A DNA stretch of 40,076 bases from a virus (lineage: Duplodnaviria; Heunggongvirae; Uroviricota; Caudoviricetes), in IMG/VR virus record IMGVR_UViG_3300022205_000001, positions 128,001 through 168,076 of that record. One strand, given 5' to 3'. Both the position numbers and the translations under genes were made by a program. Below the pieces are notes generated by a model. It saw nothing but the letters and a program-made list of their open reading frames with translations. It searched no databases and was not told the DNA's origin. Below, piece by piece: positions 6,388-39,225 of this stretch. Positions within the stretch are counted from its first letter, which is position 1, and each line of letters opens with the position of its first letter.

Positions 6388-7134
6388 ATGGCATTGAAGG
6401 ATATTTTGAGTGTTCCGTTGTATGATGTAACATGCCCATCAGGAAAGAAACTTTCGTTTCGTCCGTTCCTGGGGAAAGAAGAGAAACTTTTATTGATCGC
6501 TATGGAATCTGAGGATGCTAAGGTAGTGTTTGATACCGTGATAAAGATCCTCCAGAATTGTGTCGGCGATATTTCAAACGTCAAGGTCGATACACTACCT
6601 TTGTTTGATATTGAGTATCTATTCTTGAATCTTCGCGCAAGAAGCATAGGGGAAACTGTACCCTTGAAGTATAGATGCCGATCAACCGTCCAGAACACGG
6701 CGACTCAGCAGGCGGAGACGTGTGGTACCATTTCGGAGTATAAGGTCGACCTTTTGTCCATCAAACCAGCCTTTGGTGAGGGCCATACTAAATACATTGC
6801 TCTAACGGACACCGTTGGGGTAACACTCAAGTATCCTGCATTCAAATCCTTCTCAAAACTAGCTCGGAAGGATCTTCCAGCAGAGGAAGCATTTGAGTTT
6901 GTCCTCAACTGCATCGAATCTGTCAGTGACGCAAACACGATCACATATGCAAAAGATGTCTCTCGTGAAGAGTTGATTGATTTTGTCGAATCACTTTCGC
7001 ATCAACAAATCGCCAAGTTGGATAAATTTTTCCAGACGATGCCGAAGATTGAGAGTACGGTTCATTTCAATTGCCCTAAGTGCGGTGCAAAAGAAGATAT
7101 TGTGGTTTCGGGGCTCGACAATTTTTTCGTCTAA
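6388..7134 (+). CDS. Baseplate hub assembly protein gp26
   Basis: FRPFLGKEEKLLLIA, FDIEYLFLNLRARSIGE, FFQTMPK, CPKCG..GLDNFF. Confidence 0.92.
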   Translation: MALKDILSVPLYDVTCPSGKKLSFRPFLGKEEKLLLIAMESEDAKVVFDTVIKILQNCVGDISNVKVDTLPLFDIEYLFLNLRARSIGETVPLKYRCRSTVQNTATQQAETCGTISEYKVDLLSIKPAFGEGHTKYIALTDTVGVTLKYPAFKSFSKLARKDLPAEEAFEFVLNCIESVSDANTITYAKDVSREELIDFVESLSHQQIAKLDKFFQTMPKIESTVHFNCPKCGAKEDIVVSGLDNFFV

Positions 7135-22129: not shown

Positions 22130-23326
22130 TTATCCTTTCACGCATAACACCTGCCTCAACACGGCAACAACTTTGACCAGATCCTTCTGATCTTCCATCA
22201 CGGCATCAATGTCCTTGTATGCCGCAGGGATTTCATCCACCACACCTGCATCCTTACGACAGACAATTCCCGCGGTCTGCTTCTCAACATCCTCCGCGGT
22301 ATACAGTTCCTTTGCCTTTCCTCGTGACAACTGGCGTCCGGCACCATGCGAACAAGAGCAAAACGAATCAGAGTTTCCTAATCCCTGCACAATGTAGGAC
22401 CGGGTCCCCATTGAACCAGGAATGATCCCCATATCGCCCACGCGAGCCCGTACCGCACCCTTACGAGTGACAATCACGTTCTCCCCGAAATGGTTCTCCC
22501 GTTCCGCATAGTTATGGTGACAGTTTATCATGACTTCTGGGTCAATGATACCATACTTATCACCAAAGATTACTTCTGCAATCGCCTGAAGCGTCAACTT
22601 CATCATGATCTCACGGTTCTTCATGGCGTAGGACTGTGCCCACTGCAAATCGCGCCAGTACGCATCAAACAGAGGAGTACCCTCCGGCAGATACGCCAAG
22701 TCTGGGTTTTCCAGCTTGATCATGAATTGCTGCATCAACTCCTTGGCACAGTCAATGTAATAGTTCCCGATCTTGTTTCCAATTCCACGAGAACCTGAAT
22801 GCAGCATGACCCATACGTTGTTCTTTTCGTCTAAGCACACTTCGATGAAGTGGTTTCCACCACCGAGCGTACCTAACTGAGCCAGAGTCTTATCAAGCAA
22901 ACCCTTCGTAACAACTTCTGGAAGTTTGCAGTACCCAGGCATCATACCATTCCAAACAACCGCATCGTCGGTTGCCGTCTTATGCTGCCCCTGCCCAACA
23001 GGAATTGCCTTTGACAAGGCAGAAAACAAGGCATCCAATGAATCCGGTAAACGATCTGCTGAGAACGGCATCTGAGCCGCCATCATTCCGCACCCAATAT
23101 CCACACCAACCGCAGCCGGAACCAACGCACCCTTCGTCGCCACTACAGACCCAACGGTTGCACCCTTTCCATAGTGAACATCCGGCATAGCCGCTACATG
23201 CTTGAAGATGAATGGTAACGCAGCCGTCTGGCGCAATTGCACCTCAGACTGTAGATCTACATTCTTCGTCCAAATCTTGACCGGAACCGTTTGCTTCTCG
23301 CCCGTCAATACCTTTGAAATTCCCAT
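22130..23326 (-). CDS. rtcB: RtcB RNA ligase
   Basis: MPDVHYGKG, GVDIGCG, GTLGGGNHF, HSGSRG, HHNY, HGAGR, DEIPAAYK. Confidence 0.97.
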   Translation of the reverse strand: MGISKVLTGEKQTVPVKIWTKNVDLQSEVQLRQTAALPFIFKHVAAMPDVHYGKGATVGSVVATKGALVPAAVGVDIGCGMMAAQMPFSADRLPDSLDALFSALSKAIPVGQGQHKTATDDAVVWNGMMPGYCKLPEVVTKGLLDKTLAQLGTLGGGNHFIEVCLDEKNNVWVMLHSGSRGIGNKIGNYYIDCAKELMQQFMIKLENPDLAYLPEGTPLFDAYWRDLQWAQSYAMKNREIMMKLTLQAIAEVIFGDKYGIIDPEVMINCHHNYAERENHFGENVIVTRKGAVRARVGDMGIIPGSMGTRSYIVQGLGNSDSFCSCSHGAGRQLSRGKAKELYTAEDVEKQTAGIVCRKDAGVVDEIPAAYKDIDAVMEDQKDLVKVVAVLRQVLCVKG

Positions 23327-26869: not shown

Positions 26870-27268
26870 TTAGATCAGATAGTCTTTCCACGATTGCTCA
26901 AACATACAGTTATCAGGTGCACCACGAAACAAGGGGGCAATCTGTTCGTTTGTATATCCAGCCAATCCACAGCCGATACGAGTTACGAAAAACTTTTCAT
27001 GAGGATGCTTTTTCGCGTATTCGATAAACTCACACACATAACCGAGAATTCTATCAAGACGTAGTGTGTTCAAAGATTCATCCTTTGTAGGGATTGCGTA
27101 GGACTGTCCTGTTCGTCCTTCCCCCACACCATACTGAGCCCCATACCAATACTTAGCAAATGCCGCCGCACCCGCCCCATGTCTCCCGGCTAAATTAGAC
27201 CCAAATACGAAAATGATCTGTTGGTGTTCTCGTGGGTCTCTGCGGTCATGCTCATTATAAAATTCCAT
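26870..27268 (-). CDS. Macro-like phage protein (FVFGSN family)
   Basis: IFVFGSNLAGRHGAGAA, SYAIPT, TRIGCGLAG. Confidence 0.8.
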   Translation of the reverse strand: MEFYNEHDRRDPREHQQIIFVFGSNLAGRHGAGAAAFAKYWYGAQYGVGEGRTGQSYAIPTKDESLNTLRLDRILGYVCEFIEYAKKHPHEKFFVTRIGCGLAGYTNEQIAPLFRGAPDNCMFEQSWKDYLI

Positions 27269-27283
27269 TACCGTCCCTCAAAT

Positions 27284-27358
27284 TGGTACCCCCGGCAGGA
27301 ATCGAACCTGCGTACATCACGTTAGGACCGTGAGACCTGTCCTCTAGGATACGGAGGT
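27284..27358 (-). tRNA. tRNA-Arg(CCU)
   Basis: Loop GTCCTAA, GGTTCGA, CCA. Confidence 0.9.
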
Positions 27359-27547
27359 GTGTAGTTCTTCGCCAACAATCAACTCAACCACATCAGTATT
27401 CTGGGCAAACTTCCCATGTTTCTTACAGATAGCTTTTACAATAGTCGCCGGATTACGAGATTTAGACTTTCGTATCTGTTCCTGTACAGTCTCACGAAGT
27501 TCTCTTAGGTGCTTGGCTTCTGTTGCGGCATCTCCGAATACTAGCAT
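27344..27547 (-). CDS. Hypothetical protein; stop lies inside tRNA-Arg(CCU)
   Basis: AAGGA SD, 67 aa. Confidence 0.6.
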   Translation of the reverse strand: MLVFGDAATEAKHLRELRETVQEQIRKSKSRNPATIVKAICKKHGKFAQNTDVVELIVGEELHTSVS

Positions 27548-27551
27548 GTTG

Positions 27552-27755
27552 TCAATCCTTCATCATCGGTTTGAACCACATCAATGCTTCGGTACATTCC
27601 TCAAACATATCTGAGGTAATCTCACCTTGCAATAACTGAATATGAAACACATTCATCAAGAATGACCACTTCTGCCAAGCAAGATCGTCACGAATTTCTT
27701 CATCCGTAAAATCCCCAGGCCCTCGCAGTTGACGCTTGATTTCAGTAAGTCTCAT
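27552..27755 (-). CDS. Hypothetical protein
   Basis: GGAG SD, 67 aa. Confidence 0.6.
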   Translation of the reverse strand: MRLTEIKRQLRGPGDFTDEEIRDDLAWQKWSFLMNVFHIQLLQGEITSDMFEECTEALMWFKPMMKD

Positions 27756-27765
27756 ACATAAACTC

Positions 27766-27842
27766 CGGTGACTCGCAAAGGGGTATCGATCCCCGACCTC
27801 TCAGTCCCATACTTTGAGTGTGCTCTCCTGCACTTGCGAATC
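27766..27842 (-). ncRNA. Aberrant tRNA-like RNA (11-nt anticodon loop containing GGG; ends ACCG)
   Basis: GATTCGCA/TGCGAGTC acceptor, GTGC/GCAC D stem, GGGG-ATCGATA-CCCC T arm. Confidence 0.65.
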
Positions 27843-27845
27843 AAT

Positions 27846-27922
27846 TGGTGCCCCCAACAGGATTTGAACCTGTGTTGTTCCGCTTAGAAGGCGGATGCCT
27901 CTCCAGACTAGACTATAGGGGC
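27846..27922 (-). tRNA. tRNA-Arg(UCU)
   Basis: Loop CTTCTAA, CCA. Confidence 0.92.
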
Positions 27923-27923
27923 A

Positions 27924-28007
27924 TTATCCTGTCACTGCAAAATACATGATTATGATTGCTACAATGAACAAAAACCCATATACCCAAACTTCCAAATAGT
28001 CAATCAT
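27924..28007 (-). CDS. 27-aa single-TM peptide
   Basis: AAGGA SD; MIDYLEVWVYGFLFIVAIIIMYFAVTG. Confidence 0.5.
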   Translation of the reverse strand: MIDYLEVWVYGFLFIVAIIIMYFAVTG

Positions 28008-28019
28008 AATATTCCTTTA

Positions 28020-28112
28020 TGGAGGAGAGAGGTGGACTTGCACCACTGCCGACAATATGTCGGCCGATCCGTTTTCGAGACGGCCCCAGTTCGCTTGCCT
28101 GGTTCACTCTCC
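28020..28112 (-). tRNA. tRNA-Ser(CGA)
   Basis: Loop CTCGAAA, long V arm, CCA. Confidence 0.88.
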
Positions 28113-28184
28113 ATTAGACGGATTCAATGAATAAAATATCACAATCAACATAAACAATGCCACAAGAAATATTCCGGTACCCAT
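28104..28184 (-). CDS. 26-aa single-TM peptide; stop inside tRNA-Ser(CGA)
   Basis: AAGGAG SD; MGTGIFLVALFMLIVIFYSLNPSNGE. Confidence 0.5.
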   Translation of the reverse strand: MGTGIFLVALFMLIVIFYSLNPSNGE

Positions 28185-28196
28185 GATTCTCCTTTT

Positions 28197-28507
28197 TGGT
28201 GGAGGTGCGGGGCATTGCAGCCCCGGTCCAAAGAAACATTTGAAATAGGAACTCCATGCTACTCAATCTGAATACGCACTAAGCTGACGGATTGAGACCT
28301 CAGCTTACGGAAGGAACCACCCTGACCAGCCTGTTATTACGCTGTTTCCATACACAGGCATCTATGGAACAACGAGCAACACTTAAGCTGCCAACGCGAA
28401 TTCAGATTCGACGTTTAGTTTTTGCTAATGAGATTAACGTGAGCACCAGCACTCACGGCATGACCTAGATTTCTCTTGTTTTCTCTGTCGAACTCCTTAT
28501 CACCCCC
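28197..28507 (-). ncRNA. ssrA: tmRNA, tag (A)VESEFALAA*
   Basis: GGGGGTG...TTCGAC 5' end, CACCTCCACCA 3' end with G3.U70, tag frame 28412-28383 ending ALAA-TAA. Confidence 0.93.
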
Positions 28508-29024
28508 GTATTTGATGTGTTCTACCCACTTCTTCTATCAATGAATATCCTTTATGACTTCGTTTTCTCTCCACTACGCCTTTATGAAATGAATTGTAGT
28601 TGAGCCCATTCTGAACACAAAATGTAGTCAAACATGGAACTTCTACAACCTCTCCACTTGGTGTTTTGAGCCGATAAGTTTTAGCGTATAGGTTATCCAC
28701 TCCATTTTTCCATACACAACTTGGATTGGGATTCCTATTTGGGTTACCGCATCCCCAACTTGATCTTGTTCCTTTTGGAAATCTTATTCCTGTTACAGAA
28801 CCACCCTTTTTCGATCCAGCCATTATTGCCGCTTGCAAACACTCATCGCTACTTTTTATTCCACTCAACCCTTGCCATGCGACATAATCCTGCCAATTCC
28901 CATGTTGTTCCCACAACTTCTTATGAGCAAGAGCATGTTCTTCGGGAGACAACTCCACTAAATTAGCAGGGGCATCTGTTCCACCAGCATATTTTGGAAT
29001 AATGTGATGTTTATGTTTTACCAT
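28500..29024 (-). CDS. HNH homing endonuclease
   Basis: HKHHIIPKYAGGTDAPANLVELSPEEHALAH; NUMOD-type C-terminus. Confidence 0.9.
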   Translation of the reverse strand: MVKHKHHIIPKYAGGTDAPANLVELSPEEHALAHKKLWEQHGNWQDYVAWQGLSGIKSSDECLQAAIMAGSKKGGSVTGIRFPKGTRSSWGCGNPNRNPNPSCVWKNGVDNLYAKTYRLKTPSGEVVEVPCLTTFCVQNGLNYNSFHKGVVERKRSHKGYSLIEEVGRTHQIRG

Positions 29025-29263
29025 GAATCGTAATCTGTTACATCTAACTCAGTCAATGTCACCGTGTCTTCAATCTTTACCACAACCCCAATTGACGTTG
29101 GAGTGATATGATACGTGAATGCTCCACCAATCGCTCCCGTCCTCGCAAGACCATTGTTCTCTAAGCGTTGAATAATCTTGGTTTGCTTCTTGATAAAACG
29201 ATCAACCTGTTTAGATTGTTTGGTGGTCAATATAATCAACGGCGCATTTTCTTTCATCATCAT
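29018..29263 (-). CDS. Hypothetical protein (GAIGGAFTY..TPTSIG..DYDSW family)
   Basis: Start moved to MMMKEN, outside the tRNA. Confidence 0.7.
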   Translation of the reverse strand: MMMKENAPLIILTTKQSKQVDRFIKKQTKIIQRLENNGLARTGAIGGAFTYHITPTSIGVVVKIEDTVTLTELDVTDYDSW

Positions 29264-29267
29264 CCTA

Positions 29268-29363
29268 TGGCGGAAGAGGGAGGTCTTGATCCCCAATGCC
29301 AGGAATTAGCTGGCATCCCATCGCCTTCCAAGCGAGTCTGGCGTCCTCACCAGTTCCTCTTCC
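29268..29363 (-). tRNA. tRNA-Ser(GGA)
   Basis: Loop TTGGAAG, long V arm, CCA. Confidence 0.88.
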
Positions 29364-29370
29364 AGTTCTA

Positions 29371-29463
29371 TGGCGGAGAGCGGAGGGCTTGCACCCCAAC
29401 GGGTTTTTACGCCGTCAATCCGCTTTCAAGGCGGTTCCGGTACGCTTGTCCGGTTCACTCTCC
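29371..29463 (-). tRNA. tRNA-Ser(UGA)
   Basis: Loop CTTGAAA, long V arm, CCA. Confidence 0.88.
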
Positions 29464-29939
29464 ATATTTTTCATGAAATCAAAATCTTGTATTTCTTCGT
29501 TTGTCCATTCATCATGGTGGAGGTCATAAGACTTAAGAGGTTCCACCAGGTTGAGCTTCTTCATCTTTCGTGCAGTCCGCCACACTTTCCAAGTCTCAAG
29601 AATAAACTGACACTTCCGCTTCACTCCATATCGTATCCAATATTTTATCGCATGATAAAATCTACTACAAAAATCCCGTAAAATACGGTTCCATAACATC
29701 CATTTTGGTAGTGAAGGAATATCAACGAATTCTGGATGCTTGATAGACCCAATTAACAACCATGTGTTATCACTCTGCTGTATCAGCAAACAATGACCAT
29801 CAAGGGCATACTTCTTCGCTTTCCATTTCGTAATCAACCTATGAGACAATAATTCTTCGGTAGTATTGAATTCAAATTCCTTCCGTAACGAGGGCAAATC
29901 TATAAAATATGGCATATACACATAGAATTTATTTCTCAT
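29415..29939 (-). CDS. Hypothetical protein; last 16 codons read into tRNA-Ser(UGA)
   Basis: GGAG SD before MRNKFY. Confidence 0.6.
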   Translation of the reverse strand: MRNKFYVYMPYFIDLPSLRKEFEFNTTEELLSHRLITKWKAKKYALDGHCLLIQQSDNTWLLIGSIKHPEFVDIPSLPKWMLWNRILRDFCSRFYHAIKYWIRYGVKRKCQFILETWKVWRTARKMKKLNLVEPLKSYDLHHDEWTNEEIQDFDFMKNMESEPDKRTGTALKAD

Positions 29940-29954
29940 CACATCTCCATATAT

Positions 29955-30029
29955 TGGTGCTCCCACCGGGTATCGATCCCGGTCCTCTAGATTGAGAATC
30001 TAGCGACCTAGCCAGTAGTCGATGGGAGC
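29955..30029 (-). tRNA. tRNA-Glu(CUC)
   Basis: Loop TTCTCAA, CCA. Confidence 0.92.
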
Positions 30030-30394
30030 AAATTCAAATTCATATCAAATACAGTTGTGAGCCACAGTGGTTTAGGCTCAACTCCCCGATAAAACAAGAC
30101 CACTGCCGACATGGGGTATTCTTTATTCACCAATTTCATTAAACTTCCACCGGTTGTCCACACATCATCTGCATACAAAATACAAGAAGATTCTTCAGAT
30201 CGATACTGATACAAGGCTTCAGCAAACTTCCATCCGCCACGAGGAATTCCGATCACGGTTCTGAATCGTAACTTGGGGGCAACCAATGCAGCGATTGCAG
30301 CCCAATCGTCAGAAGTCAATGCGTCACAATCAATCTTGAAATTTGATTTCTTCCCTGATGCTAATGTAAAATCCCCATGATTGAAAAGATTCAT
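30008..30394 (-). CDS. Type I phosphoribosyltransferase (orotate PRTase-like, short)
   Basis: GDFTLASGKKS, GIPRGG, ADDVWTTGGS. Confidence 0.85.
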   Translation of the reverse strand: MNLFNHGDFTLASGKKSNFKIDCDALTSDDWAAIAALVAPKLRFRTVIGIPRGGWKFAEALYQYRSEESSCILYADDVWTTGGSLMKLVNKEYPMSAVVLFYRGVEPKPLWLTTVFDMNLNLLPSTTG

Positions 30395-30410
30395 TACATC
30401 CTCATAATAT

Positions 30411-30487
30411 TGGTGGAACGGGTGGGAGTCGAACCCACGTATTCTTGGTTAAGAGCCAAGACTGAATGCCTCTCCAGTCACCGTTCC
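30411..30487 (-). tRNA. tRNA-Lys(CUU)
   Basis: Loop CTCTTAA, CCA. Confidence 0.92.
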
Positions 30488-30491
30488 GTTA

Positions 30492-30569
30492 TGGTGTCCC
30501 TGGTTGGATTTAAACCAACGTTCTCCGGTTTCGCAAACCGGCGTGTTATTCAGGCTTCACTACAGGGAC
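30492..30569 (-). tRNA. tRNA-Arg(GCG)
   Basis: Loop TTGCGAA, CCA. Confidence 0.85.
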
Positions 30570-30574
30570 GTAAT

Positions 30575-30649
30575 TGGTGCACGGTGTTGGTACTGCCCCA
30601 ACTTAGTCCACTTTGTAGGAGTGGTGCATATCTTTCCTGCCCACCGTGC
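30575..30649 (-). tRNA. tRNA-Val(UAC), C33
   Basis: Loop CCTACAA, CCA. Confidence 0.83.
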
Positions 30650-30658
30650 GTTCTATTC

Positions 30659-30735
30659 TGGAGCCCCTTGTTGGACTTGCACCAACCGTTTCCACTTTAC
30701 CAAAGTGGCGTGTCAACTACCTCTACTTAAGGGGC
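30659..30735 (-). tRNA. tRNA-Thr(GGU)
   Basis: Loop TTGGTAA, CCA. Confidence 0.88.
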
Positions 30736-30743
30736 ATATTGTA

Positions 30744-31071
30744 GTAGGAAGAACCATAGCCGGGGTTCTGTTCTATTCCATCATTTCTCTAGGAATATCA
30801 TTACTGATACCCTCAAGCCACCTACCCGTCAACATCATGAGAGCGTCACTTGTTCGTTGACCTATTTGGTGTTGCACCACGTAGAGATTGTTCGTATCAC
30901 CTCCCCATACTCTGAGCCTGATATGAGCAGTCTCGTATTATGAGTATGGTTCCTCGTCTCTTTAACTCTAATCCTCAGGTTACCCTGGGTGGCCGTTAGC
31001 CACTACGCTGCTCTTGGTGCCCCGAACTTCCTCTAGTGCATCAGTCACTAGCGATGGATCGTTCTTCCTAC
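30744..31071 (-). ncRNA. rnpB: RNase P RNA (type A-like)
   Basis: P1 GTAGGAAGAAC/GTTCTTCCTAC; GAGGAAGTTCGGG, GCAA..CCAAATAGG, CGGGTAGG..GCTTGAG, AGAGAAATGA, ACAGAACCCCGGCTAT blocks in order. Confidence 0.9.
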
Positions 31072-31087
31072 ATTCTCCTTTCTATCT

Positions 31088-31163
31088 TGGTACCATCGGT
31101 GGGATTTGAACCCACACTTGACTACTTTTGAGGTAGCTGACTCTGCCGTTGGTCTACGATGGC
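31088..31163 (-). tRNA. tRNA-Leu(CAA), short variable loop
   Basis: Loop CTCAAAA, 76 nt, CCA. Confidence 0.88.
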
Positions 31164-31173
31164 ATTAGTATCT

Positions 31174-31249
31174 TGGTACCGCTGGTGGGATTTGAACCCA
31201 CACTACACAGGGTTTAAGCCTGGTGACTCTGCCGTTGGTCTACAGCGGC
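31174..31249 (-). tRNA. tRNA-Leu(UAA), short variable loop
   Basis: Loop CTTAAAC, CCA. Confidence 0.88.
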
Positions 31250-31252
31250 ATA

Positions 31253-31327
31253 TGGAGCCCAACACCGGACTTGCGCCGGTCTCTTCCGCTTACGAAACGG
31301 ATGCATCGCTCTCAATGCTTGTCGGGC
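31253..31327 (-). tRNA. tRNA-Thr(CGU)
   Basis: Loop TTCGTAA, CCA. Confidence 0.88.
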
Positions 31328-31357
31328 ATTATAACATATCTCAGATACAAAAGTCAA
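31328..31357 (-). promoter_or_regulatory. Possible internal sigma70 promoter TTGACT-18-TATAAT
   Basis: Extended -10, but it abuts the tRNA-Thr 5' end, so the TSS would fall inside the tRNA. Confidence 0.45.
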
Positions 31358-31365
31358 CAACTATT

Positions 31366-31440
31366 TGGTGCCGCCGGTAGGAATCGAACCCACCTGAATC
31401 CGGTTAAAAGCCGGGAGCATAGCCACTCTGCCACGACGGC
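31366..31440 (-). tRNA. tRNA-Lys(UUU)
   Basis: Loop CTTTTAA, CCA. Confidence 0.92.
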
Positions 31441-31447
31441 GCTATAT

Positions 31448-31525
31448 TGGTCTGGATGGTGGGATTTGAACCCACAATTTCTCCGATCCGAACGGAGAGG
31501 AGTAGCCAGGTTCTCCTACATCCAG
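31448..31525 (-). tRNA. tRNA-Pro(CGG)
   Basis: Loop TTCGGAT, C1:G72, CCA. Confidence 0.9.
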
Positions 31526-31529
31526 GTTC

Positions 31530-31853
31530 TTAGTTTTCAATAACAGTATGCTTTTTCAGTTCAATATAAAACGATCTCTCAAGTCTAAACACTTTTCCTG
31601 CTGGTGCTGTCATTGGTTGCACAGAACATAATTCTTTAGCGATCACTGCCGGGTACGCTGTTCGCACGATATCAATAATACGATTCCGATTTTCCTGAGT
31701 ATTCGGTTTTCCAATAAACTGAGATAAACTATCTGCCAGGTATTCTGGTGCTGGTTCTGGTGCTGGTGCCTGGTCACTAAGAACTTTTACAGGGTTCAGT
31801 ATGACCGCGCCAACTGTGCCGATCAACACTTTCAGAAATGTTCGTCTATTCAT
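31530..31853 (-). CDS. Tat-signal protein carrying a gp23 (major capsid) Gol-region-like segment
   Basis: MNRRTFLK + hydrophobic core; IVRTAYPAVIAKELCSVQPMTAPAGKVF; GAGG SD. Confidence 0.7.
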   Translation of the reverse strand: MNRRTFLKVLIGTVGAVILNPVKVLSDQAPAPEPAPEYLADSLSQFIGKPNTQENRNRIIDIVRTAYPAVIAKELCSVQPMTAPAGKVFRLERSFYIELKKHTVIEN

Positions 31854-31870
31854 ACATGCCTCATAATAAT

Positions 31871-31944
31871 TGGAGCGACCACCGGATTCTGCCACCGGGA
31901 CTACGGGTTGGAAGCCCATCGTTTTGCTTCTAAACTATGGTCGC
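31871..31944 (-). tRNA. tRNA-Gly(UCC)
   Basis: Loop CTTCCAA, U73, CCA. Confidence 0.85.
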
Positions 31945-31956
31945 ATATTCAATTTT

Positions 31957-32031
31957 TGGAGCGGATGGCGGGAGTCGAACCCGCGTGATCTTCGTTGGCA
32001 ACGAAGCACATAACCGTTCTGTCACATCCGC
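31957..32031 (-). tRNA. tRNA-Gly(GCC)
   Basis: Loop TTGCCAA, CCA. Confidence 0.92.
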
Positions 32032-32040
32032 ATATGCAAT

Positions 32041-32115
32041 TGGCGCGGTCTCGGAGAATCGAACTCCGGTGTCTCCCTCTTCAGGGGAGTGCTTTACCAA
32101 CTAAGCTAAGACCGC
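32041..32115 (-). tRNA. tRNA-Phe(GAA)
   Basis: Loop CTGAAGA, CCA. Confidence 0.92.
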
Positions 32116-32120
32116 ATAAA

Positions 32121-32194
32121 TGGCTGGAGATGAAGGAGTCGAACCTTCCTAGCCGGTTTCAGAGACCGGTGCATTGCCGCTTTGCTAATCTCCA
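32121..32194 (-). tRNA. tRNA-Gln(CUG)
   Basis: Loop CTCTGAA, U1:A72, G73, CCA. Confidence 0.92.
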
Positions 32195-32346
32195 TCTTTT
32201 CTAAGTGGTATCACAAATGGATTATCATTGACCTTTCTTAATCTTTTCTTCAGTCTCAATAAATGCCGCGTAGCAATTTGTTCTGTAACAATATCACTGA
32301 ATTTCTCGATATCAGCTTCTAGTATTATCCTGGTCCTGGTTTCCAT
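32185..32346 (-). CDS. 53-aa hypothetical (METRTRIILEAD...); stop inside tRNA-Gln(CUG)
   Basis: Starts 2 nt after phosphoesterase stop. Confidence 0.5.
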   Translation of the reverse strand: METRTRIILEADIEKFSDIVTEQIATRHLLRLKKRLRKVNDNPFVIPLRKDGD

Positions 32347-32348
32347 AA

Positions 32349-32858
32349 TCAACTTCCGTTATACCACCAAATTCTCTTTCGTACTTCTTCCAACGAAATC
32401 GGTGCCCAATCCGTATGCTCGACACAGACACATTGATACCAAGGATCAGGTATCACATTCGCGTGTGTGTGCCCATGCACATTCGCTTTGAATCGTCCTT
32501 TACTCTCAGGATGCACTGGAATATGTGAGAGTAGCATATGATCTAACACATGGTACGCTCTGATATCCCGAAAATGCTTCAGATAATCTTTCAAACTGAA
32601 GATGTCATGGTTCCCTTTGATTAGAACCTTGTCACCATTCAATCGGCTGAGTGTCGCCAGGTTCTTGCGAGCGATAACAACATCACCTAGATGATAGACT
32701 TTATCGTTCGGTCGCACGACCTTGTTCCAACGCTCAACCATCACCTCATCCATTTCTTCGGGAGTTTCCCAAGGTCTCAGCTTGGTGCCATCATTCCGAA
32801 GAAACTTGCACATTCCAGCATGACCGAAATGCGTGTCTGCTGTCAGAAAAATATTCAT
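32349..32858 (-). CDS. Calcineurin-like phosphoesterase (phage type)
   Basis: ADTHFGH, HLGDV, GNHD, SHIP, HGHTH. Confidence 0.93.
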   Translation of the reverse strand: MNIFLTADTHFGHAGMCKFLRNDGTKLRPWETPEEMDEVMVERWNKVVRPNDKVYHLGDVVIARKNLATLSRLNGDKVLIKGNHDIFSLKDYLKHFRDIRAYHVLDHMLLSHIPVHPESKGRFKANVHGHTHANVIPDPWYQCVCVEHTDWAPISLEEVRKRIWWYNGS

Positions 32859-33040
32859 TTCGGATGCAACCCAAACACTTTCATTTCACGATATTCATCT
32901 TCCGTTCCATCAAAAAGAGAAACAGGACGATGATTACAAAATTGGCATCGTGAATTCACATGAACCGCACCGACTACATTCAATTCACTAATCCACCCAC
33001 ATCCACGACAACCAAACCAATGCATAATATTACTTTGCAT
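32855..33040 (-). CDS. Small zinc-ribbon protein
   Basis: CRGC...CQFC; AAGGA SD before MQSNIM. Confidence 0.6.
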   Translation of the reverse strand: MQSNIMHWFGCRGCGWISELNVVGAVHVNSRCQFCNHRPVSLFDGTEDEYREMKVFGLHPK

Positions 33041-33049
33041 ATTATTCCT

Positions 33050-33124
33050 TGGAAGCCCCACAGGGATTTGAACCCCGACCAATTGATTCAAAGTCAATTG
33101 TGCTGCCAGTTACACCATAGGGCT
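33050..33124 (-). tRNA. tRNA-Gln(UUG)
   Basis: Loop CTTTGAA, CCA. Confidence 0.9.
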
Positions 33125-33253
33125 ATGTATCTTTGCAATAATCTGTGCATCGATCTCCCGGCGAATCTCATTTGCAGCAAACCAATACAATTGGTGTTCT
33201 GCTGTGAGGAGATGCAACTTATATCGATATTTTCCACGGTTCTTCTTTCTCAT
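33110..33253 (-). CDS. 47-aa ORF (..AANEIRREIDAQIIAKI..); stop inside tRNA-Gln(UUG)
   Basis: AGGA SD; fills the inter-tRNA gap. Confidence 0.5.
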   Translation of the reverse strand: MRKKNRGKYRYKLHLLTAEHQLYWFAANEIRREIDAQIIAKIHSPMV

Positions 33254-33266
33254 AATAATATCCTAA

Positions 33267-33354
33267 TGGCGGAAGGTGAAGGATTTGAACCTTCGTGGGT
33301 GTTACCCCGCATCCCTTAGCAGGGGAGCCGAATTAGCCTCTCTCGCAACCTTCC
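33267..33354 (-). tRNA. tRNA-Ser(GCU)
   Basis: Loop CTGCTAA, long V arm, CCA. Confidence 0.92.
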
Positions 33355-33367
33355 AAAAATCTTTTTT

Positions 33368-33455
33368 GTGGTGCTTCGCCCCGTTCACAACTGGACTAAC
33401 GGGGGTGTGCATTATCCAGCTTCCCTCTCTTCCACAACACCACTGAAGAGACTGT
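33368..33455 (-). ncRNA. Unassigned structured RNA with possible pseudoknot
   Basis: GTGGTGTT/AGCACCAC, CCCCGTT/AACGGGG, loop TCCAGTT complementary to AGCTGGA. Confidence 0.45.
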
Positions 33456-33461
33456 GCCTCT

Positions 33462-33536
33462 TGGAGTCGCCGGAGGGATTTGCACCCCCGTCATGCCGCT
33501 TTGCAGGCGGCTGCCTCGCTACTCGGCCACGGCGAC
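33462..33536 (-). tRNA. tRNA-Cys(GCA)
   Basis: Loop CTGCAAA, U73, CCA. Confidence 0.92.
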
Positions 33537-33641
33537 ATTAAAACAATATACTCCAACCAACAACAAAGTAGACTTTATGTGACGCGAAAGTGTTTCCGGC
33601 ATTGAACCACACTTCGCCATGCTCAAGTAACCACAACATAA

Positions 33642-33729
33642 TGGGCTGGAGGAGGCTGGATTTGCACCAGTCCATACGAATGTATGCATCACCCTCGTAT
33701 GTCTAGATTTCCCTTCTAGCCGTCCTCCA
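33642..33729 (-). ncRNA. tRNA-like RNA with elongated anticodon arm
   Basis: TGGAGGA/TCCTCCA, CTAGA/TCTAG, CATACGA/TCGTATG, CTGG-TGCAAAT-CCAG, ends CCA. Confidence 0.65.
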
Positions 33730-33736
33730 CTCTATT

Positions 33737-33814
33737 TGGCGCCCATGATGGGATTTGAACCCACGATCTTTTGCGTGACAAGCAAACGGGGACTCCAGGC
33801 TCCCCTACACAGGC
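33737..33814 (-). tRNA. tRNA-Asp(GUC)
   Basis: Loop TTGTCAC, G73, CCA. Confidence 0.92.
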
Positions 33815-33825
33815 ATAAATCTTTT

Positions 33826-34038
33826 TTACGCTGGAACCGCATAACGGTTCCGTATGCTCCACTAGCACATGGCTAGCAAGTTTCTTCAATCCCAAGAGAA
33901 GAGTAGAAGGCTTTCACTTCGTTCGCAAAGTATCCGTATACTCACCTTCCACTATTCTTTGGATGCCGGCCACACGGGCTGTTGCCTGTTGCCGGCTCTA
34001 TCTCACAGATTTGCGGCCGCCCCCATGAGACAGCGTAA
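33826..34038 (-). ncRNA. Unassigned ~210-nt multibranch RNA
   Basis: Closing helix TTACGCTG/CAGCGTAA enclosing five hairpins. Confidence 0.6.
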
Positions 34039-34040
34039 TA

Positions 34041-34108
34041 TGGTGGTGAGAGACTTTCTACTTTCGTTTTACCTCATGCAACGAGGTGTCCGTAGCTCGC
34101 CCCTCACC
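34041..34108 (-). ncRNA. Armless CCA-ended hairpin RNA
   Basis: GGTGAGGGGC/GTCTCTCACC + ACCA; no D or T arm. Confidence 0.55.
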
Positions 34109-34112
34109 AAAC

Positions 34113-34196
34113 TGGTGGATAGCCAGAGAGTCGAACTCTGCGAGAATTAACGACGGTGTTACAGACCGCCCCGCCTCCGTAACGGTTTAGCTACCC
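34113..34196 (-). tRNA. tRNA-Tyr(GUA)
   Basis: Loop CTGTAAC, extended V region, CCA. Confidence 0.88.
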
Positions 34197-34209
34197 CTAT
34201 ATCAAAAAT

Positions 34210-35045
34210 TGGTGGGGTCTCTTATAGAGCGATCACAACCCCCTCTCGCTTTAGCTGAAACTTTTAGAGCGTCAGTCAGCCATCTTCGCTATCAGGTGCC
34301 TAGGTCCTCAGTTATTCCCCGGCAGGGAGGACTCCACGATAATTGCCGGGCCAGATGTTCCCATGTCTGCACCTGTTGGGGAACCCACGAATCGATCCGG
34401 TCCTCTTGGGAGCGGAAAATCTAGGGGTCAGTGATTTTAGTGGTCCCACCCCCAAGCCCCACCCTGCACTCCGTTCTCCGTCGCAAGGACCATGAACTTG
34501 CACAGGTCAGAGAATCTTAAGCTTCTCCGATAGGAAACCTTTGTTATGGCAGTGTTTCGTCTGCCTTAGTGCAGTCTTCCCTTTTACAAGAATGGAATCA
34601 ACCCAGTGGTCAGCTTCCCTGCACATTCTATTTCTTTGAGTGCGAAAGGTGAACTAGAGGTTCCTCGTTCAGCTTCCTGAAAGATTAGCCAACCTTGCTG
34701 GCATCTCTTTCCTTCAGCACCGGACCGTATTTCTTCCCTCGGTGCCTGTGTCGCTTTGGGCGCGGTTATCACTCTATAGTGGCCGCAGCAAGTTACCCGC
34801 CGTTCTTGTCGCATTGGGGCGCTTGCCTCACCCCGCCGATTTTATTGTAGGATCGCCCGTGCTGCGCGGGTTCTGATCAGTGTTTTCCCCATGAATCGTA
34901 TACTATTCATGGGCACTATTGGGTGCTACCCCAATTACATCCTACAATATTTACTCAAACTCTTTTGTCTATCAAGCGACAGATTCGCCTCTAGGCGCTT
35001 TATTGATCCGATTGGGATCGCTTATTCTGTCGCTCATTCATCATA
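34210..35045 (-). ncRNA. Large (~830 nt) highly structured RNA, family unassigned
   Basis: No credible ORF, GC-rich, many helices and a pseudoknot, own promoter. Confidence 0.7.
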
Positions 35046-35050
35046 TTAAG

Positions 35051-35079
35051 AGTATAACAGACTCATTCTATCCTGTCAA
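35051..35079 (-). promoter_or_regulatory. Sigma70 promoter TTGACA-17-TATACT with A-tract UP region, driving the large RNA
   Basis: -10 at 35051-56, -35 at 35074-79, IHF-like box at 35121-33. Confidence 0.88.
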
Positions 35080-35223
35080 GGGTCTTTTTGCACTTTTTTC
35101 AAAAATATTTTTCTCAATACTTTCAAGCACTTAGAAATCGTCCCTTTTCGCTATAGGGGATTATCCTCTTATCCAAAAACACCGCCTATAAGCCGGTTTT
35201 GACCGTTTTTCGAGCATCCTATA

Positions 35224-35312
35224 TGGTACACCCGTATGGAATCGAACCATATCAAGCCGGTAATCTGCCGGGAAGGACTTATAAGGTCCTCTTGCCTCCA
35301 AGGCGCGGGTGC
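35224..35312 (-). tRNA. tRNA-Ile(UAU) with long V arm and minimal D arm
   Basis: Loop CTTATAA; V arm CCGG-CAGATTA-CCGG; GGTTCGA; CCA. Confidence 0.8.
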
Positions 35313-35319
35313 ATCTATT

Positions 35320-35395
35320 TGGTGCCTGTGAGAGGATTTGAACCTCTACTTCACGGCTTCTAAGACCGTTGACTCTGCCGTTGGTCTACACAGGC
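35320..35395 (-). tRNA. tRNA-Leu(UAG), short variable loop
   Basis: Loop CTTAGAA, CCA. Confidence 0.88.
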
Positions 35396-35400
35396 ATAGT

Positions 35401-35474
35401 TGGTGCCGGTAGAAGGAATTGCACCTTCTCAGAATGACTTATGAAATCATCTGGCTTCGCTTGTGCTTACCGGC
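35401..35474 (-). tRNA. tRNA-Met/Ile2(CAU), weak D arm
   Basis: Loop TTCATAA, CCA. Confidence 0.78.
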
Positions 35475-36045
35475 TATTGTTATACCGCTTTAGCCCTTCA
35501 CTTATCTTTTGTTTATAATCATCAGAAAGTGTTTTACCTTTATTCCAAGGAATGCGGCCTTTCTGTGATTCACTCATCTTTCTCTTCGTTTCTTCAGAAT
35601 GACGTTTGCCTATGAATCCATTCTTCATCAAACCATTTCGCCATGCTTCTATTGACTTTTCAGAACATATTCGTTTTGTTTTTTCCGTGTGGGTCTTACC
35701 TAAAAAAGGTCGTGCTTTCTTGCCGCCTGCCGACTGAAGGGCTTTCCATTGTTCAGGTGTTTTTACATTATTCGCATAATCCCACCCACCAAACCCACCT
35801 TGCTTGAGATTATAGGTATGTGGTCCCAAAACTACTAACTCTTTTTCCTTCTGAAACATTTCCTCAGAAGTATTTGCTTCAAACAGGATTTCCCTAATGA
35901 AGTTATTAGCACCATACTTCTCAATGGCTCGTTTGAGAAGAGTTCCTGACCCCAGGTACCCATCATCACGATCTTGTGTTTGGTGAGAGCCAATGTAAAA
36001 CTTTCCATTCACTAAGTTTGTTGTTTTATAGACCAAATAGAGCAT
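35467..36045 (-). CDS. GIY-YIG homing endonuclease (Seg-like) with NUMOD3 repeats
   Basis: LVYKTTNLVNGKFYIGSH, YLGSG, GKTHTEKTK, GKRHSEETKRKMS; late box at 36065-72, AGGAGG SD. Confidence 0.93.
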   Translation of the reverse strand: MLYLVYKTTNLVNGKFYIGSHQTQDRDDGYLGSGTLLKRAIEKYGANNFIREILFEANTSEEMFQKEKELVVLGPHTYNLKQGGFGGWDYANNVKTPEQWKALQSAGGKKARPFLGKTHTEKTKRICSEKSIEAWRNGLMKNGFIGKRHSEETKRKMSESQKGRIPWNKGKTLSDDYKQKISEGLKRYNNSR

Positions 36046-36078
36046 ATTAGTACCTCCTATGCGCTATTTAGTCTTATG

Positions 36079-36152
36079 TAGCGGGCCACCGGAGTTGCAC
36101 CGGGAACATAAGGTTATGGGCCTTATCGGGTCACTGTCCCCTGCCACCCGCA
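36079..36152 (-). tRNA. tRNA-Met(CAU), initiator-like (U1xU72), C33, no encoded CCA
   Basis: Loop CCCATAA; TGCGGGT/GCCCGCT acceptor; ends ACAT. Confidence 0.75.
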
Positions 36153-36156
36153 AACT

Positions 36157-36233
36157 TGGTGCCTCTGGTAGGATTTGAACCTTCACTAAACAGGCTCTCG
36201 ACCTGCCGACTCTGCCAATTGGTCTACAGAGGC
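36157..36233 (-). tRNA. tRNA-Leu(GAG), short variable loop, C33
   Basis: Loop TCGAGAG, CCA. Confidence 0.85.
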
Positions 36234-36239
36234 AATATC

Positions 36240-36322
36240 ATGGACAGAGTATTCTACCACTTGAACTACTAGCAGTGTGTAGCTGCTAACCAGGGCATTG
36301 AAACCTGGATCTCTCCGCTTAT
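36240..36322 (-). ncRNA. Circularly permuted tRNA-like RNA (T arm - closed acceptor - D arm)
   Basis: GCGGAG, CCAGG/CCTGG, TTAGCAG-CTACACA-CTGCTAG, TAGTTCAAGTGGTAGAAT, CTCTGT. Confidence 0.8.
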
Positions 36323-36397
36323 TGGTCTAGGCGACAGGATTCGCACCTGCATGGTCCCCGCCCCAAACGGGGTGGTCCACTCTTGACCCACGCCTAG
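36323..36397 (-). tRNA. tRNA-Pro(UGG)
   Basis: Loop TTTGGGG, C1:G72, CCA. Confidence 0.92.
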
Positions 36398-36402
36398 ATA
36401 TT

Positions 36403-36477
36403 TGGCGCTCCCTACGGGTATCGATCCCGTTCCTGAAGCTTGAAAGGCTTCCGACCTAGCCAGTAGTCGAAGGGAGC
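36403..36477 (-). tRNA. tRNA-Glu(UUC)
   Basis: Loop CTTTCAA, CCA. Confidence 0.92.
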
Positions 36478-36488
36478 ATATTCAATTT

Positions 36489-36563
36489 TGGTGGACCGAC
36501 CGGGCTTCGCTCCCGGCTCTCAACATTGCAAGTGTTGTGTTTTCCTGAATAAACTATCAGCCC
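36489..36563 (-). tRNA. tRNA-Ala(UGC) 1
   Basis: Loop CTTGCAA, G3.U70, CCA. Confidence 0.9.
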
Positions 36564-36568
36564 ATATT

Positions 36569-36643
36569 TGGTGGAGGTTGGCGGTTCTGCCCCGCCGACT
36601 TCTCGGTGCAAGCGAGATGGTTTCCTAATTAGCCTAAACCCCC
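36569..36643 (-). tRNA. tRNA-Ala(UGC) 2
   Basis: Loop CTTGCAC, G3.U70, CCA. Confidence 0.88.
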
Positions 36644-36655
36644 ATATTTTCTTTT

Positions 36656-36859
36656 AGCCCGTTCATTACTTCCACCTAAGCTTGGAAGACTGCCCTCACG
36701 GCAGCGAACGGAGCCTGCTTACCGGCTTGGGGTGATTGTGAGTAGCACTAGCCCTTTATCGGCTACGGTACATCTCACGCCCCAAACCTACATATTTTTG
36801 TTATCCTTTTACCCCGCCGTGTATAACGGGAACCGTATTAGGAGTTAGGAAAGGATAAC
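36656..36859 (-). ncRNA. Three consecutive unassigned structured RNA modules
   Basis: GTTATCCTTT/AAAGGATAAC; GGTTTGGGG/CCCCAAGCC; three-way junction closed by CCGTTC/GAACGG. Confidence 0.5.
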
Positions 36860-36864
36860 TCTCT

Positions 36865-36939
36865 TGGGGTGTCTGGTGGGCCAACGCACCCACATACCCA
36901 GGGCCACAACCTGGTACCTTACTCTTAGGTTACAGACAC
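36865..36939 (-). tRNA. tRNA-His(GUG)
   Basis: Loop TTGTGGC, C73, CCA; no encoded G-1. Confidence 0.85.
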
Positions 36940-37000
36940 AATCGATCTGGGTCCACGTAGGAGCCAGAAACTTTGGGATTCTTGTAAGGATGCATCAAGC

Positions 37001-37075
37001 TGGAGCCCATTGAGGGAATCGAACCCCCTTATCCGAGGTACAAACTCGGCGCATCACCATTTATGCTTAACGGGC
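37001..37075 (-). tRNA. tRNA-Thr(UGU)
   Basis: Loop TTTGTAC, CCA. Confidence 0.92.
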
Positions 37076-37398
37076 TAAAAACTCTTTCCTTCTTTGTACC
37101 TAACTCTACGAAAATGCCTACCCTTACCAATGTTCCTAGTCTTGTATGTTGGTGTCAACCCGTGACAATTGAGGCACAGCAATCTAGTATTTTTCACAGA
37201 ATCATTATCACTGTTACCGTCATCATGCTCAACATCTAAGGGAATAGGAACTCCATTCCATTCTTTCAATCCACACTGTTGACATTGATACCCTCGCTCC
37301 TCTATCAGGTATTTGCGAAGAGTCTGAGGATTAAGGGATACGCATGTTCCCGCTAACCAAGATTTACGCATCTCCACAAAATCTTTTCTATACGCCAT
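37075..37398 (-). CDS. HNH endonuclease (start uncertain)
   Basis: CQQCG..LDVEHDDGNSDND..NTRLLCLNCH. Confidence 0.82.
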   Translation of the reverse strand: MAYRKDFVEMRKSWLAGTCVSLNPQTLRKYLIEERGYQCQQCGLKEWNGVPIPLDVEHDDGNSDNDSVKNTRLLCLNCHGLTPTYKTRNIGKGRHFRRVRYKEGKSF

Positions 37399-37527
37399 AT
37401 TGATCTTACCAACAAGTTTCTGTTGACAACGGATGCAGGATTTCTGCGTGTCCTCCCCTTACAGGCGACTGGGCTACCTGCACAACCCCTGGTACCTTGG
37501 AGTCTGCTTGGTGTTTACATCAATCCG

Positions 37528-38052
37528 TTATGTCAATTCTGCCGTCCAATACAAATAATCACGCCAGGTCTCTGGCATTGTTCGCAATCCAATCGTGACC
37601 GTCACGACCTGCGCCCACTGAGGCTGCTTCGGCTTGCGAATCAACTTCATCCTCGCCTGTTCCGGTGTGCGTCCCGCCTTGCGGGAATTACAATCCACAC
37701 ACGCCGTCACAATGTTGTCCCAGGACTTCACGCCACCCTGAGTCACTGGCTTGACGTGATCGAACGTCAACTCTTCTGATTTAAACTTCTCTCCGCAATA
37801 CTGACATGACCAGTTATCCCTAGTGAAGATATTCAATCGCGTAAACTTCACCGGAATTTTACGCTTCAATCTCACCGGCATCAACATACGGATAACCGAT
37901 GGGATCTTCATCGTGAAAGAGATCGAATGAATTTCTTCGTTATGTTCCTCAATCACTTCTACCTTACCACTCCATAAAAGAGTAATGGCTCGTTGCCAGG
38001 TTACAATTTGTAGTGGTTCATAATGTGCATTAAGAACTAGCGTATGATTCAT
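37528..38052 (-). CDS. McrA-like HNH endonuclease
   Basis: LVLNAHYEPL, RDNWSCQYCG, DHVKP..GG..WDNIVTACVDCNSRK. Confidence 0.93.
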   Translation of the reverse strand: MNHTLVLNAHYEPLQIVTWQRAITLLWSGKVEVIEEHNEEIHSISFTMKIPSVIRMLMPVRLKRKIPVKFTRLNIFTRDNWSCQYCGEKFKSEELTFDHVKPVTQGGVKSWDNIVTACVDCNSRKAGRTPEQARMKLIRKPKQPQWAQVVTVTIGLRTMPETWRDYLYWTAELT

Positions 38053-39185: not shown

Positions 39186-39225
39186 AGTATAACACAGTTT
39201 CTTGTCCCTGTCAAGAGTATTTATA
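39186..39225 (-). promoter_or_regulatory. Tandem promoters of the tRNA array: sigma70 TTGACA-17-TATACT and late TATAAATA
   Basis: -10 at 39186-91, -35 at 39209-14, late box at 39218-25. Confidence 0.88.

Follow-up and report, generated by a model that had tools for sequence, protein, structure and literature searches.

Protein genes with stop codons inside the next tRNA or tmRNA in the tRNA array of a T4-like phage

The array and its nine overlaps

The DNA analysed here (hereafter the window, 40,076 nucleotides (nt)) makes up the final 40 kb of IMGVR_UViG_3300022205_000001, a virus record (Caudoviricetes) that is complete at 168,076 bp and whose gene set, judged by eye from the list of open reading frames (ORFs), is T4-like. 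At ~26.7-39 kb of the window, the minus strand carries a tRNA array that includes ~40 tRNAs, a transfer-messenger RNA (tmRNA) and a class A RNase P RNA. Nine protein genes of this array have no stop codon of their own before the RNA that follows; the stop is supplied by the downstream tRNA or tmRNA, and all nine minus-strand ORFs end 1-49 nt inside it, counted from position +1 of the RNA to the end of the stop. The original prediction, made from the letters alone, had listed nine such stops and three endonucleases among the ORFs concerned, and all the positions and the three endonucleases (HNH, GIY-YIG/NUMOD3 and HNH) were confirmed. The genes, each followed by the RNA it runs into, are listed in window coordinates, with (-) for the minus strand:

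27344..27547 (-): 67-amino acid (aa) ORFan; TAG = nt 13-15 of tRNA-Arg(CCU); Shine-Dalgarno sequence present; codon score above 99% of shadow ORFs
27284..27358 (-): tRNA-Arg(CCU), +1 = 27358
28104..28184 (-): 26-aa hydrophobic peptide, directly after the tmRNA; TGA = nt 7-9 of tRNA-Ser(CGA)
28020..28112 (-): tRNA-Ser(CGA), +1 = 28112; relaxed ARAGORN
28500..29024 (-): HNH homing endonuclease, 174 aa; TGA = nt 6-8 of the tmRNA
28197..28507 (-): tmRNA, tag VESEFALAA, +1 = 28507; Rfam, 89 bits
29415..29939 (-): ~175-aa ORF; TGA = nt 47-49 of tRNA-Ser(UGA)
29371..29463 (-): tRNA-Ser(UGA), +1 = 29463; relaxed ARAGORN
30008..30394 (-): orotate phosphoribosyltransferase (PRTase)-like protein, 128 aa; TAG = nt 20-22 of tRNA-Glu(CUC)
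29955..30029 (-): tRNA-Glu(CUC), +1 = 30029
32185..32346 (-): 53-aa ORF, doubtful gene; TAG = nt 8-10 of tRNA-Gln(CUG)
32121..32194 (-): tRNA-Gln(CUG), +1 = 32194
33110..33253 (-): 47-aa ORF; TAA = nt 13-15 of tRNA-Gln(UUG); codon score above 99% of shadow ORFs
33050..33124 (-): tRNA-Gln(UUG), +1 = 33124
35467..36045 (-): GIY-YIG/NUMOD3 homing endonuclease, 192 aa; TAA = nt 6-8 of a CAU tRNA
35401..35474 (-): CAU-anticodon tRNA (Met or Ile2), +1 = 35474; weak Rfam match, 29.4 bits
37075..37398 (-): HNH endonuclease, 107 aa; only the G of TAG lies in tRNA-Thr(UGU), as nt 1
37001..37075 (-): tRNA-Thr(UGU), +1 = 37075

Support is good for six of the nine ORFs: family matches back the PRTase and the three nucleases, and codon scores back the 67-aa and 47-aa ORFs. 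The nuclease domains are found in stand-alone ORFs and match PHROG 655 (E 5e-14), 314 (9e-47) and 10822 (1e-19) as well as NUMOD3. Searches recovered no homologue of the 67-aa ORF and no relative of the 53-aa ORF, the latter being weak by codon use as well (31% of shadow ORFs score equally well); the 47-aa ORF, too short for such a search, gave none either. The positional homologues of the 26-aa peptide after the tmRNA in three relatives have a gap of 0, a gap of 1 nt and an overlap of 9 nt, respectively. The last 16 codons and the TGA of the ~175-aa ORF come from nt 1-49 of tRNA-Ser(UGA), and its family match is confined to the N-terminal ~80 aa; because members of this family are only 86-98 aa long and 16 codons are read into the tRNA, this ORF looks eroded or fused, and it is the only one of the nine for which erosion or fusion appears plausible.

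The acceptor stem is paired and CCA is present in all nine overlapped RNAs. Most of the overlaps add 0-6 tail residues, and an RNase P cut at +1 would take 0, 2 and 2 residues off the three nucleases. The other four credible ORFs of the window stop 1, 1, 1 and 4 nt before a tRNA, and a gene that ends just short of its tRNA served as an internal control:

26870..27268 (-): A1S_2505-family gene; stops 1 nt before tRNA-Arg(UCG)

Near-consensus sigma-70-type promoters are located at window positions 39214, 35079 and 31357, and none of this strength was detected directly before any of the nine ORFs, which are therefore likely to be co-transcribed with the tRNA precursors. The statement that the phage itself encodes RNase P RNA, tmRNA and ClpP was borne out, and a further gene of potential relevance to ribosome rescue lies outside the window:

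30741..31070 (-): RNase P RNA, bacterial class A; Rfam, 191 bits
17524..18297 (-): ClpP-family protease gene, outside the array; under the NCBIfam equivalog cut-offs
G000 6650-7012 (= L124:651-1013) (-): stand-alone GGQ release-factor-domain protein, 120 aa, ArfB- or PrfH-like

Assignment of the GGQ protein to ArfB or PrfH was attempted, and neither was reached; the protein could release untagged chains, including near-full-length nucleases. SmpB (PF01668), RnpA (PF00825) and a ClpX/ClpA-type ATPase (PF07724) had no match in the complete genome.

Frequency, enrichment and inheritance of the overlaps

To place the nine overlaps in context, 80 loci were fetched via the metallophosphoesterase of the array and more via the PRTase, and tRNAs were called, yielding about 60 arrays; ORFs, from simple ORF calling, were counted if they had at least 100 aa or a diverged homologue. 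In the first set, 68/195 close ORF-tRNA junctions overlap, and 38/56 arrays contain at least one overlap. The comparison of this frequency with a null expectation, which the original prediction had proposed, gave 28% for the two other frames as a non-coding control, and the observed value is not significantly above it (p=0.12). The enlarged set yielded 87/234 overlapping close junctions; ORF-ORF junctions overlap in 58/111 cases. The overlap lengths are mildly shorter than in a random-frame null (p=0.10) and peak at 10 nt (20/68; 13 expected) and 15 nt, matching the stop triplets conserved in tRNAs, U8-A9-G10 and U13-A14-G/A15. The gaps vary continuously across the cut site, the mode being 1 nt before +1, and there is no excess of frameshifted stops just before +1 (25/82 vs 512/1568). 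The leaders of the overlapped tRNAs are AU-rich, with U at -1 in 51%, compared to 60% at non-overlap junctions and 70% overall. Thus, overlap is a common trait of such arrays that is neither avoided nor clearly sought overall. The window has overlaps at 9/13 credible junctions vs 82/226 elsewhere (p=0.019), a post hoc comparison that is not like-for-like.

An iterative search starting from seed proteins that were not part of the test set was used to define the homing endonucleases, and their rate of overlap with the next RNA is about double that of other genes: 17/24 vs 70/210 (p=0.0006), or, leaving out the window, 14/21 vs 68/205 (p=0.004). With families added by eye, some of them Pfam-checked, the counts are 24/38 for nucleases and 63/196 for the others. 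One third of the non-nuclease genes overlap too, and among these, singletons (a proxy for recent arrivals) show no more overlap than family members (20/67 vs 50/143). In loci that carry RNase P RNA or tmRNA, 10/11 nucleases and 19/50 other genes overlap, compared to 14/27 and 44/146 in the remaining loci, which are partial such that absence of these RNAs from them is not established; for all genes taken together, the values are 29/61 vs 58/173 (p=0.06; p=0.14 without the window). HNH genes overlap the next tRNA in phages Arash, Slocum, S124, PumpkinSpice and iF6, and stop short of it in LPCS28 (1 nt before tRNA-Thr) and KP13-7. In T5 (AY543070), hegC, hegD and T5.069 (T5orf172-domain) overlap by 14, 23 and 24 nt, compared to 1/8 other genes with an overlap. 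Searches of T5, Arash and Slocum for RNase P RNA and tmRNA found neither, so that the overlaps are not confined to phages with their own copies of these RNAs.

Two families lie at opposite ends of this spectrum. An RNase H-like family (PF04308; L003:12203-12679 and 11 homologues) precedes a tRNA in 12 arrays and overlaps it in 0/12, compared to about one third in the background. A family of 63-79-aa proteins encoded directly upstream of tRNA-Leu(CAA) (L088:8099-8290, L097:5018-5257, G001, G002) overlaps in 4/4 clade members and, although absent from the window, would be the best non-nuclease candidate for a conserved overlap.

The junctions differ in their history. Two PRTase homologues run into tRNA-Glu(CUC) in the same frame, at 88% identity (overlap 10 nt) and 57% identity (overlap 22 nt), and three others, at 83%, 77% and 62% identity, end at a stop of their own that lies 6, 2 and 7 nt, respectively, ahead of other tRNAs. 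The 83% homologue now lies at another tRNA, but its end still consists of the first bases of tRNA-Glu, made into its own TAA; the PRTase/tRNA-Glu overlap is therefore ancestral, and its loss in this homologue did no harm. The HNH/tmRNA junction (..QIRG stop) is common to the window and a deletion remnant in the relative L088, and the C-terminus of the 107-aa HNH falls at the residue where a homologue in phage Atu_ph07 also ends, at a stop of its own. Distant homologues of the HNH that precedes the tmRNA are found outside tRNA arrays, with their own stops. The GIY-YIG homologue in L096 (59%) overlaps a different tRNA, tRNA-Lys, by 10 nt. The searches for PRTase and GIY-YIG homologues in viral contigs returned none.

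The presence of the nucleases is optional, with the same slots empty in G001, G002, L094 and L096 and, before the tmRNA, only the deleted remnant in L088. Orthologues of the A1S_2505-family gene at tRNA-Arg(UCG) either overlap it (10, 10 and 23 nt) or stop before it (1, 1 and 17 nt), and orthologues in general flip between overlap and gap at different tRNAs (PRTase 3/6, A1S_2505 3/7, metallophosphoesterase 10/21 overlapping). Collectively, these comparisons indicate that the overlaps are old, tolerated and labile, and they are not required, given that close homologues end at stops of their own. Recent erosion, which the original prediction had named as speaking against regulation, is ruled out as a general cause by the homologue junctions of the PRTase, the HNH before the tmRNA and the 107-aa HNH, the PRTase/tRNA-Glu and HNH/tmRNA junctions being inherited. 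Two modes of origin were tried and rejected: insertion of a nuclease into a tRNA leaving a 5' stump left no trace (the best 12-mer match was 8.2, compared to 8.0 for controls), and travel of the nuclease with a divergent tRNA allele gave only a trend (p=0.15).

Several other features of the window were recorded. A structured non-coding RNA at 37417-37540 (-), found in four relatives, follows a conserved HNH gene (37528-38052); it has an invariant TGTAAACACCAAGCA core, 18/30 predicted pairs covary, and it had no Rfam match. Its closing stem takes in the stop codon of that HNH gene, a possible tenth overlap. The 107-aa ORF at 31530-31853 (-), with a twin-arginine-like motif at its start and no NCBIfam match, stops 4 nt before tRNA-Pro(CGG). 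A divergent tRNA-Val(UAC) at 30575-30655 (-) escaped ARAGORN and Rfam and is kept in seven related loci. Two tRNA-like RNAs ending in CCA, at 33645-33735 and 34040-34112 (-), have abnormal anticodon arms and no matching counterparts among the fetched relatives. Conserved non-coding elements lie between tRNAs at 34290-34420, 36235-36320 and 36650-36860 (-); each is shared by one to five related loci, and none corresponds to an Rfam family. RtcB is also encoded (22130-23326).

Probable packing, predicted stop loss and the competing explanations

The explanation that we favour, and regard as moderately probable, is tight packing with borrowed stops, the loss of the stop after the RNase P cut being a likely side effect that is preferentially retained in nucleases. 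Cargo genes of phage tRNA arrays would abut the AU-rich leader that precedes the next tRNA, and a gene arriving or trimmed without its own stop would read a few codons into the tRNA and end at the first in-frame stop, usually U8-A9-G10 or U13-A14-G15/A15; such read-through would be tolerated because, mostly, so few tail residues are involved. In pre-tRNA and pre-tmRNA, RNase P cleaves between -1 and +1 (PMC10731613), and this cut would leave the co-transcribed mRNA with no stop and an unprotected end. The proposal that tRNA maturation generates non-stop mRNA thus stands with respect to the geometry, which puts the stop after +1, and to the retained AU-rich leaders, whereas the cut remains a prediction.

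Either tmRNA or ArfA/ArfB deals with non-stop messages (PMC3989581), and ribosomes at the cut end would be rescued by tmRNA, with tagging and decay by Clp, or by the GGQ hydrolase; complete, untagged protein would then come mainly from precursor translated before processing. Given that so few nuclease residues are removed by the cut, silencing would depend on tagging and mRNA decay rather than on truncation, and the GGQ hydrolase would work against it. Genes that end 1-5 nt before +1 are probably destabilised too and, therefore, overlap would be a matter of degree. The outcome would be passive damping that is cheap for most genes and freely gained and lost, with the overlap kept preferentially in homing endonucleases, probably owing to the harm that their excess causes to the phage's own DNA. 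Host RNase P, tmRNA/SmpB and Clp would be enough, with no need for the phage copies.

Three points weigh against this explanation. The arrays were fetched via one marker gene, and the junctions are related and not fully independent. The nuclease enrichment could equally reflect mobile-gene insertion or dispensable tails, without selection for damping. Finally, overlaps are more frequent in the window (9/13) and among the nucleases of the clade with RNase P RNA and tmRNA (10/11 vs 14/27) than elsewhere, which leaves scope for a clade-specific use.

In a first rival account, the overlaps would be a pure by-product of packing or insertion, with no effect visible to selection, and the nucleases would be recent insertions with dispensable tails, the rationale being that an mRNA cut just before its stop would be about as unstable as one cut 1-5 nt after it. 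The continuity of the gaps around the cut site with the mode just before +1, the four window genes that stop 1-4 nt short of a tRNA, the similarity of the overlap rate to that of non-coding frames and the nuclease genes that narrowly miss the cut (the LPCS28 HNH and T4 segB, which stops 5 nt before tRNA-Arg and homes efficiently despite processing; PMC2988022) all fit this account. Nevertheless, we consider it rather doubtful: non-nuclease singletons are no richer in overlap than family members, the complete lack of overlap in the RNase H-like family implies that, for some genes, the junction is under selection, a tRNA 5' stump is not found upstream of overlapping genes, and the downstream tRNA is not significantly diverged.

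At the other extreme is the original prediction itself, a processing-coupled off-switch that would have evolved to control all nine genes, operated by the RNase P RNA, tmRNA and ClpP of the phage and timed by the accumulation of the two RNAs, which we find improbable. The co-occurrence of these three components in one genome, the high fractions of overlap in the window and among the nucleases of the clade, the retention of the PRTase/tRNA-Glu overlap at 57% protein identity and the 4/4 overlaps of the family upstream of tRNA-Leu(CAA) are in its favor, and arfA demonstrates that such control exists (PMC3989581). However, overlaps of this kind are also found in T5, Arash and Slocum, from which both RNAs are missing, the excess of the clade over other loci for all genes reaches only p=0.06 (p=0.14 without the window), one third of non-nucleases overlap, the overlap is lost in some orthologues, the complete genome encodes no SmpB, RnpA or Clp ATPase, the GGQ protein could free nearly complete nucleases untagged, and no function is common to the nine genes. 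A narrower version, in which selection has placed the ends of nearly all array homing endonucleases of the clade (10/11) within the tRNA or tmRNA that follows, such that the phage's own maturation and tagging act as a timed, genome-wide nuclease silencer, is quite unlikely as well; if true, it would include a nuclease mRNA cut by maturation of the same tmRNA that tags it. Of the compaction-or-erosion alternative offered with the original prediction, compaction forms part of the favoured reading, and the inherited junctions speak against recent erosion as a general cause.

Related systems and implications

The observation is real but represents a known kind of arrangement for which the regulatory consequence had been proposed before: damping of endonucleases by tRNA precursor processing was suggested in 2008 by Brok-Volchanskaya et al. 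for T4 segB and for T5 (PMC2330249). The closest parallel is with T5 hegC (F-TflI) and hegD (F-TflII), free-standing HNH genes whose annotated coding sequences run 14 and 23 nt into the next tRNA and for which lowered expression through precursor processing was proposed (PMC2330249). Unlike the present phage, T5 is without RNase P RNA and tmRNA, whereas in the window one nuclease ends in the tmRNA itself and 6/9 genes are not nucleases. T4 segB (GIY-YIG, between tRNA-Ile and tRNA-Arg) resembles the window nucleases in being co-transcribed with tRNA precursors, and a cut between its last and stop codons at tRNA-Arg maturation was proposed as negative control (PMC2330249); it differs in having its own stop before the tRNA and in that the cut is ascribed to RNase E (PMC2988022), not to RNase P at +1. 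Edgell et al. report that such processing does not prevent homing (PMC2988022).

In E. coli arfA, the stop is likewise lost to a processing nuclease (RNase III), and the product is eliminated by trans-translation (PMC3989581). The processing site lies upstream of the stop in the window as well, with +1 located 1-49 nt before the end of the stop and the cut predicted. The arfA control involves a dedicated hairpin and a feedback loop and is experimentally demonstrated, whereas the window would rely on ordinary tRNA maturation and has a labile junction. The nine-ORF layout would work like the arfA regulation but lacks the conservation expected of such control, given that the cut-before-stop arrangement is not conserved across orthologues (PRTase 3/6, post-tmRNA peptide 2/4, A1S_2505 3/7). 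In animal mitochondria, tRNA excision sets the 3' ends of mRNAs (tRNA punctuation) and can leave an incomplete stop, and polyadenylation completes the UAA, a required step. The tRNA-Thr(UGU) case would likewise leave ...UA, but the other 8/9 window overlaps are too deep for stop completion.

No count or test of the arrangement was found in the literature searched, although the overlap is visible in the T5 annotation. The present analysis contributes a count of the overlaps, their enrichment in nucleases, the recognition that the HNH/tmRNA junction is inherited, and evidence against dependence on phage machinery. For annotation, pipelines that bar overlap of coding sequences with tRNAs will miss genuine genes or tRNAs of such arrays. 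For phage biology, the census provides a rate, with about one third of close ORF-tRNA junctions, and about two thirds of those of nucleases, overlapping, and T5 hegC/hegD in E. coli present a direct test case for the limitation of nucleases by tRNA maturation and trans-translation.

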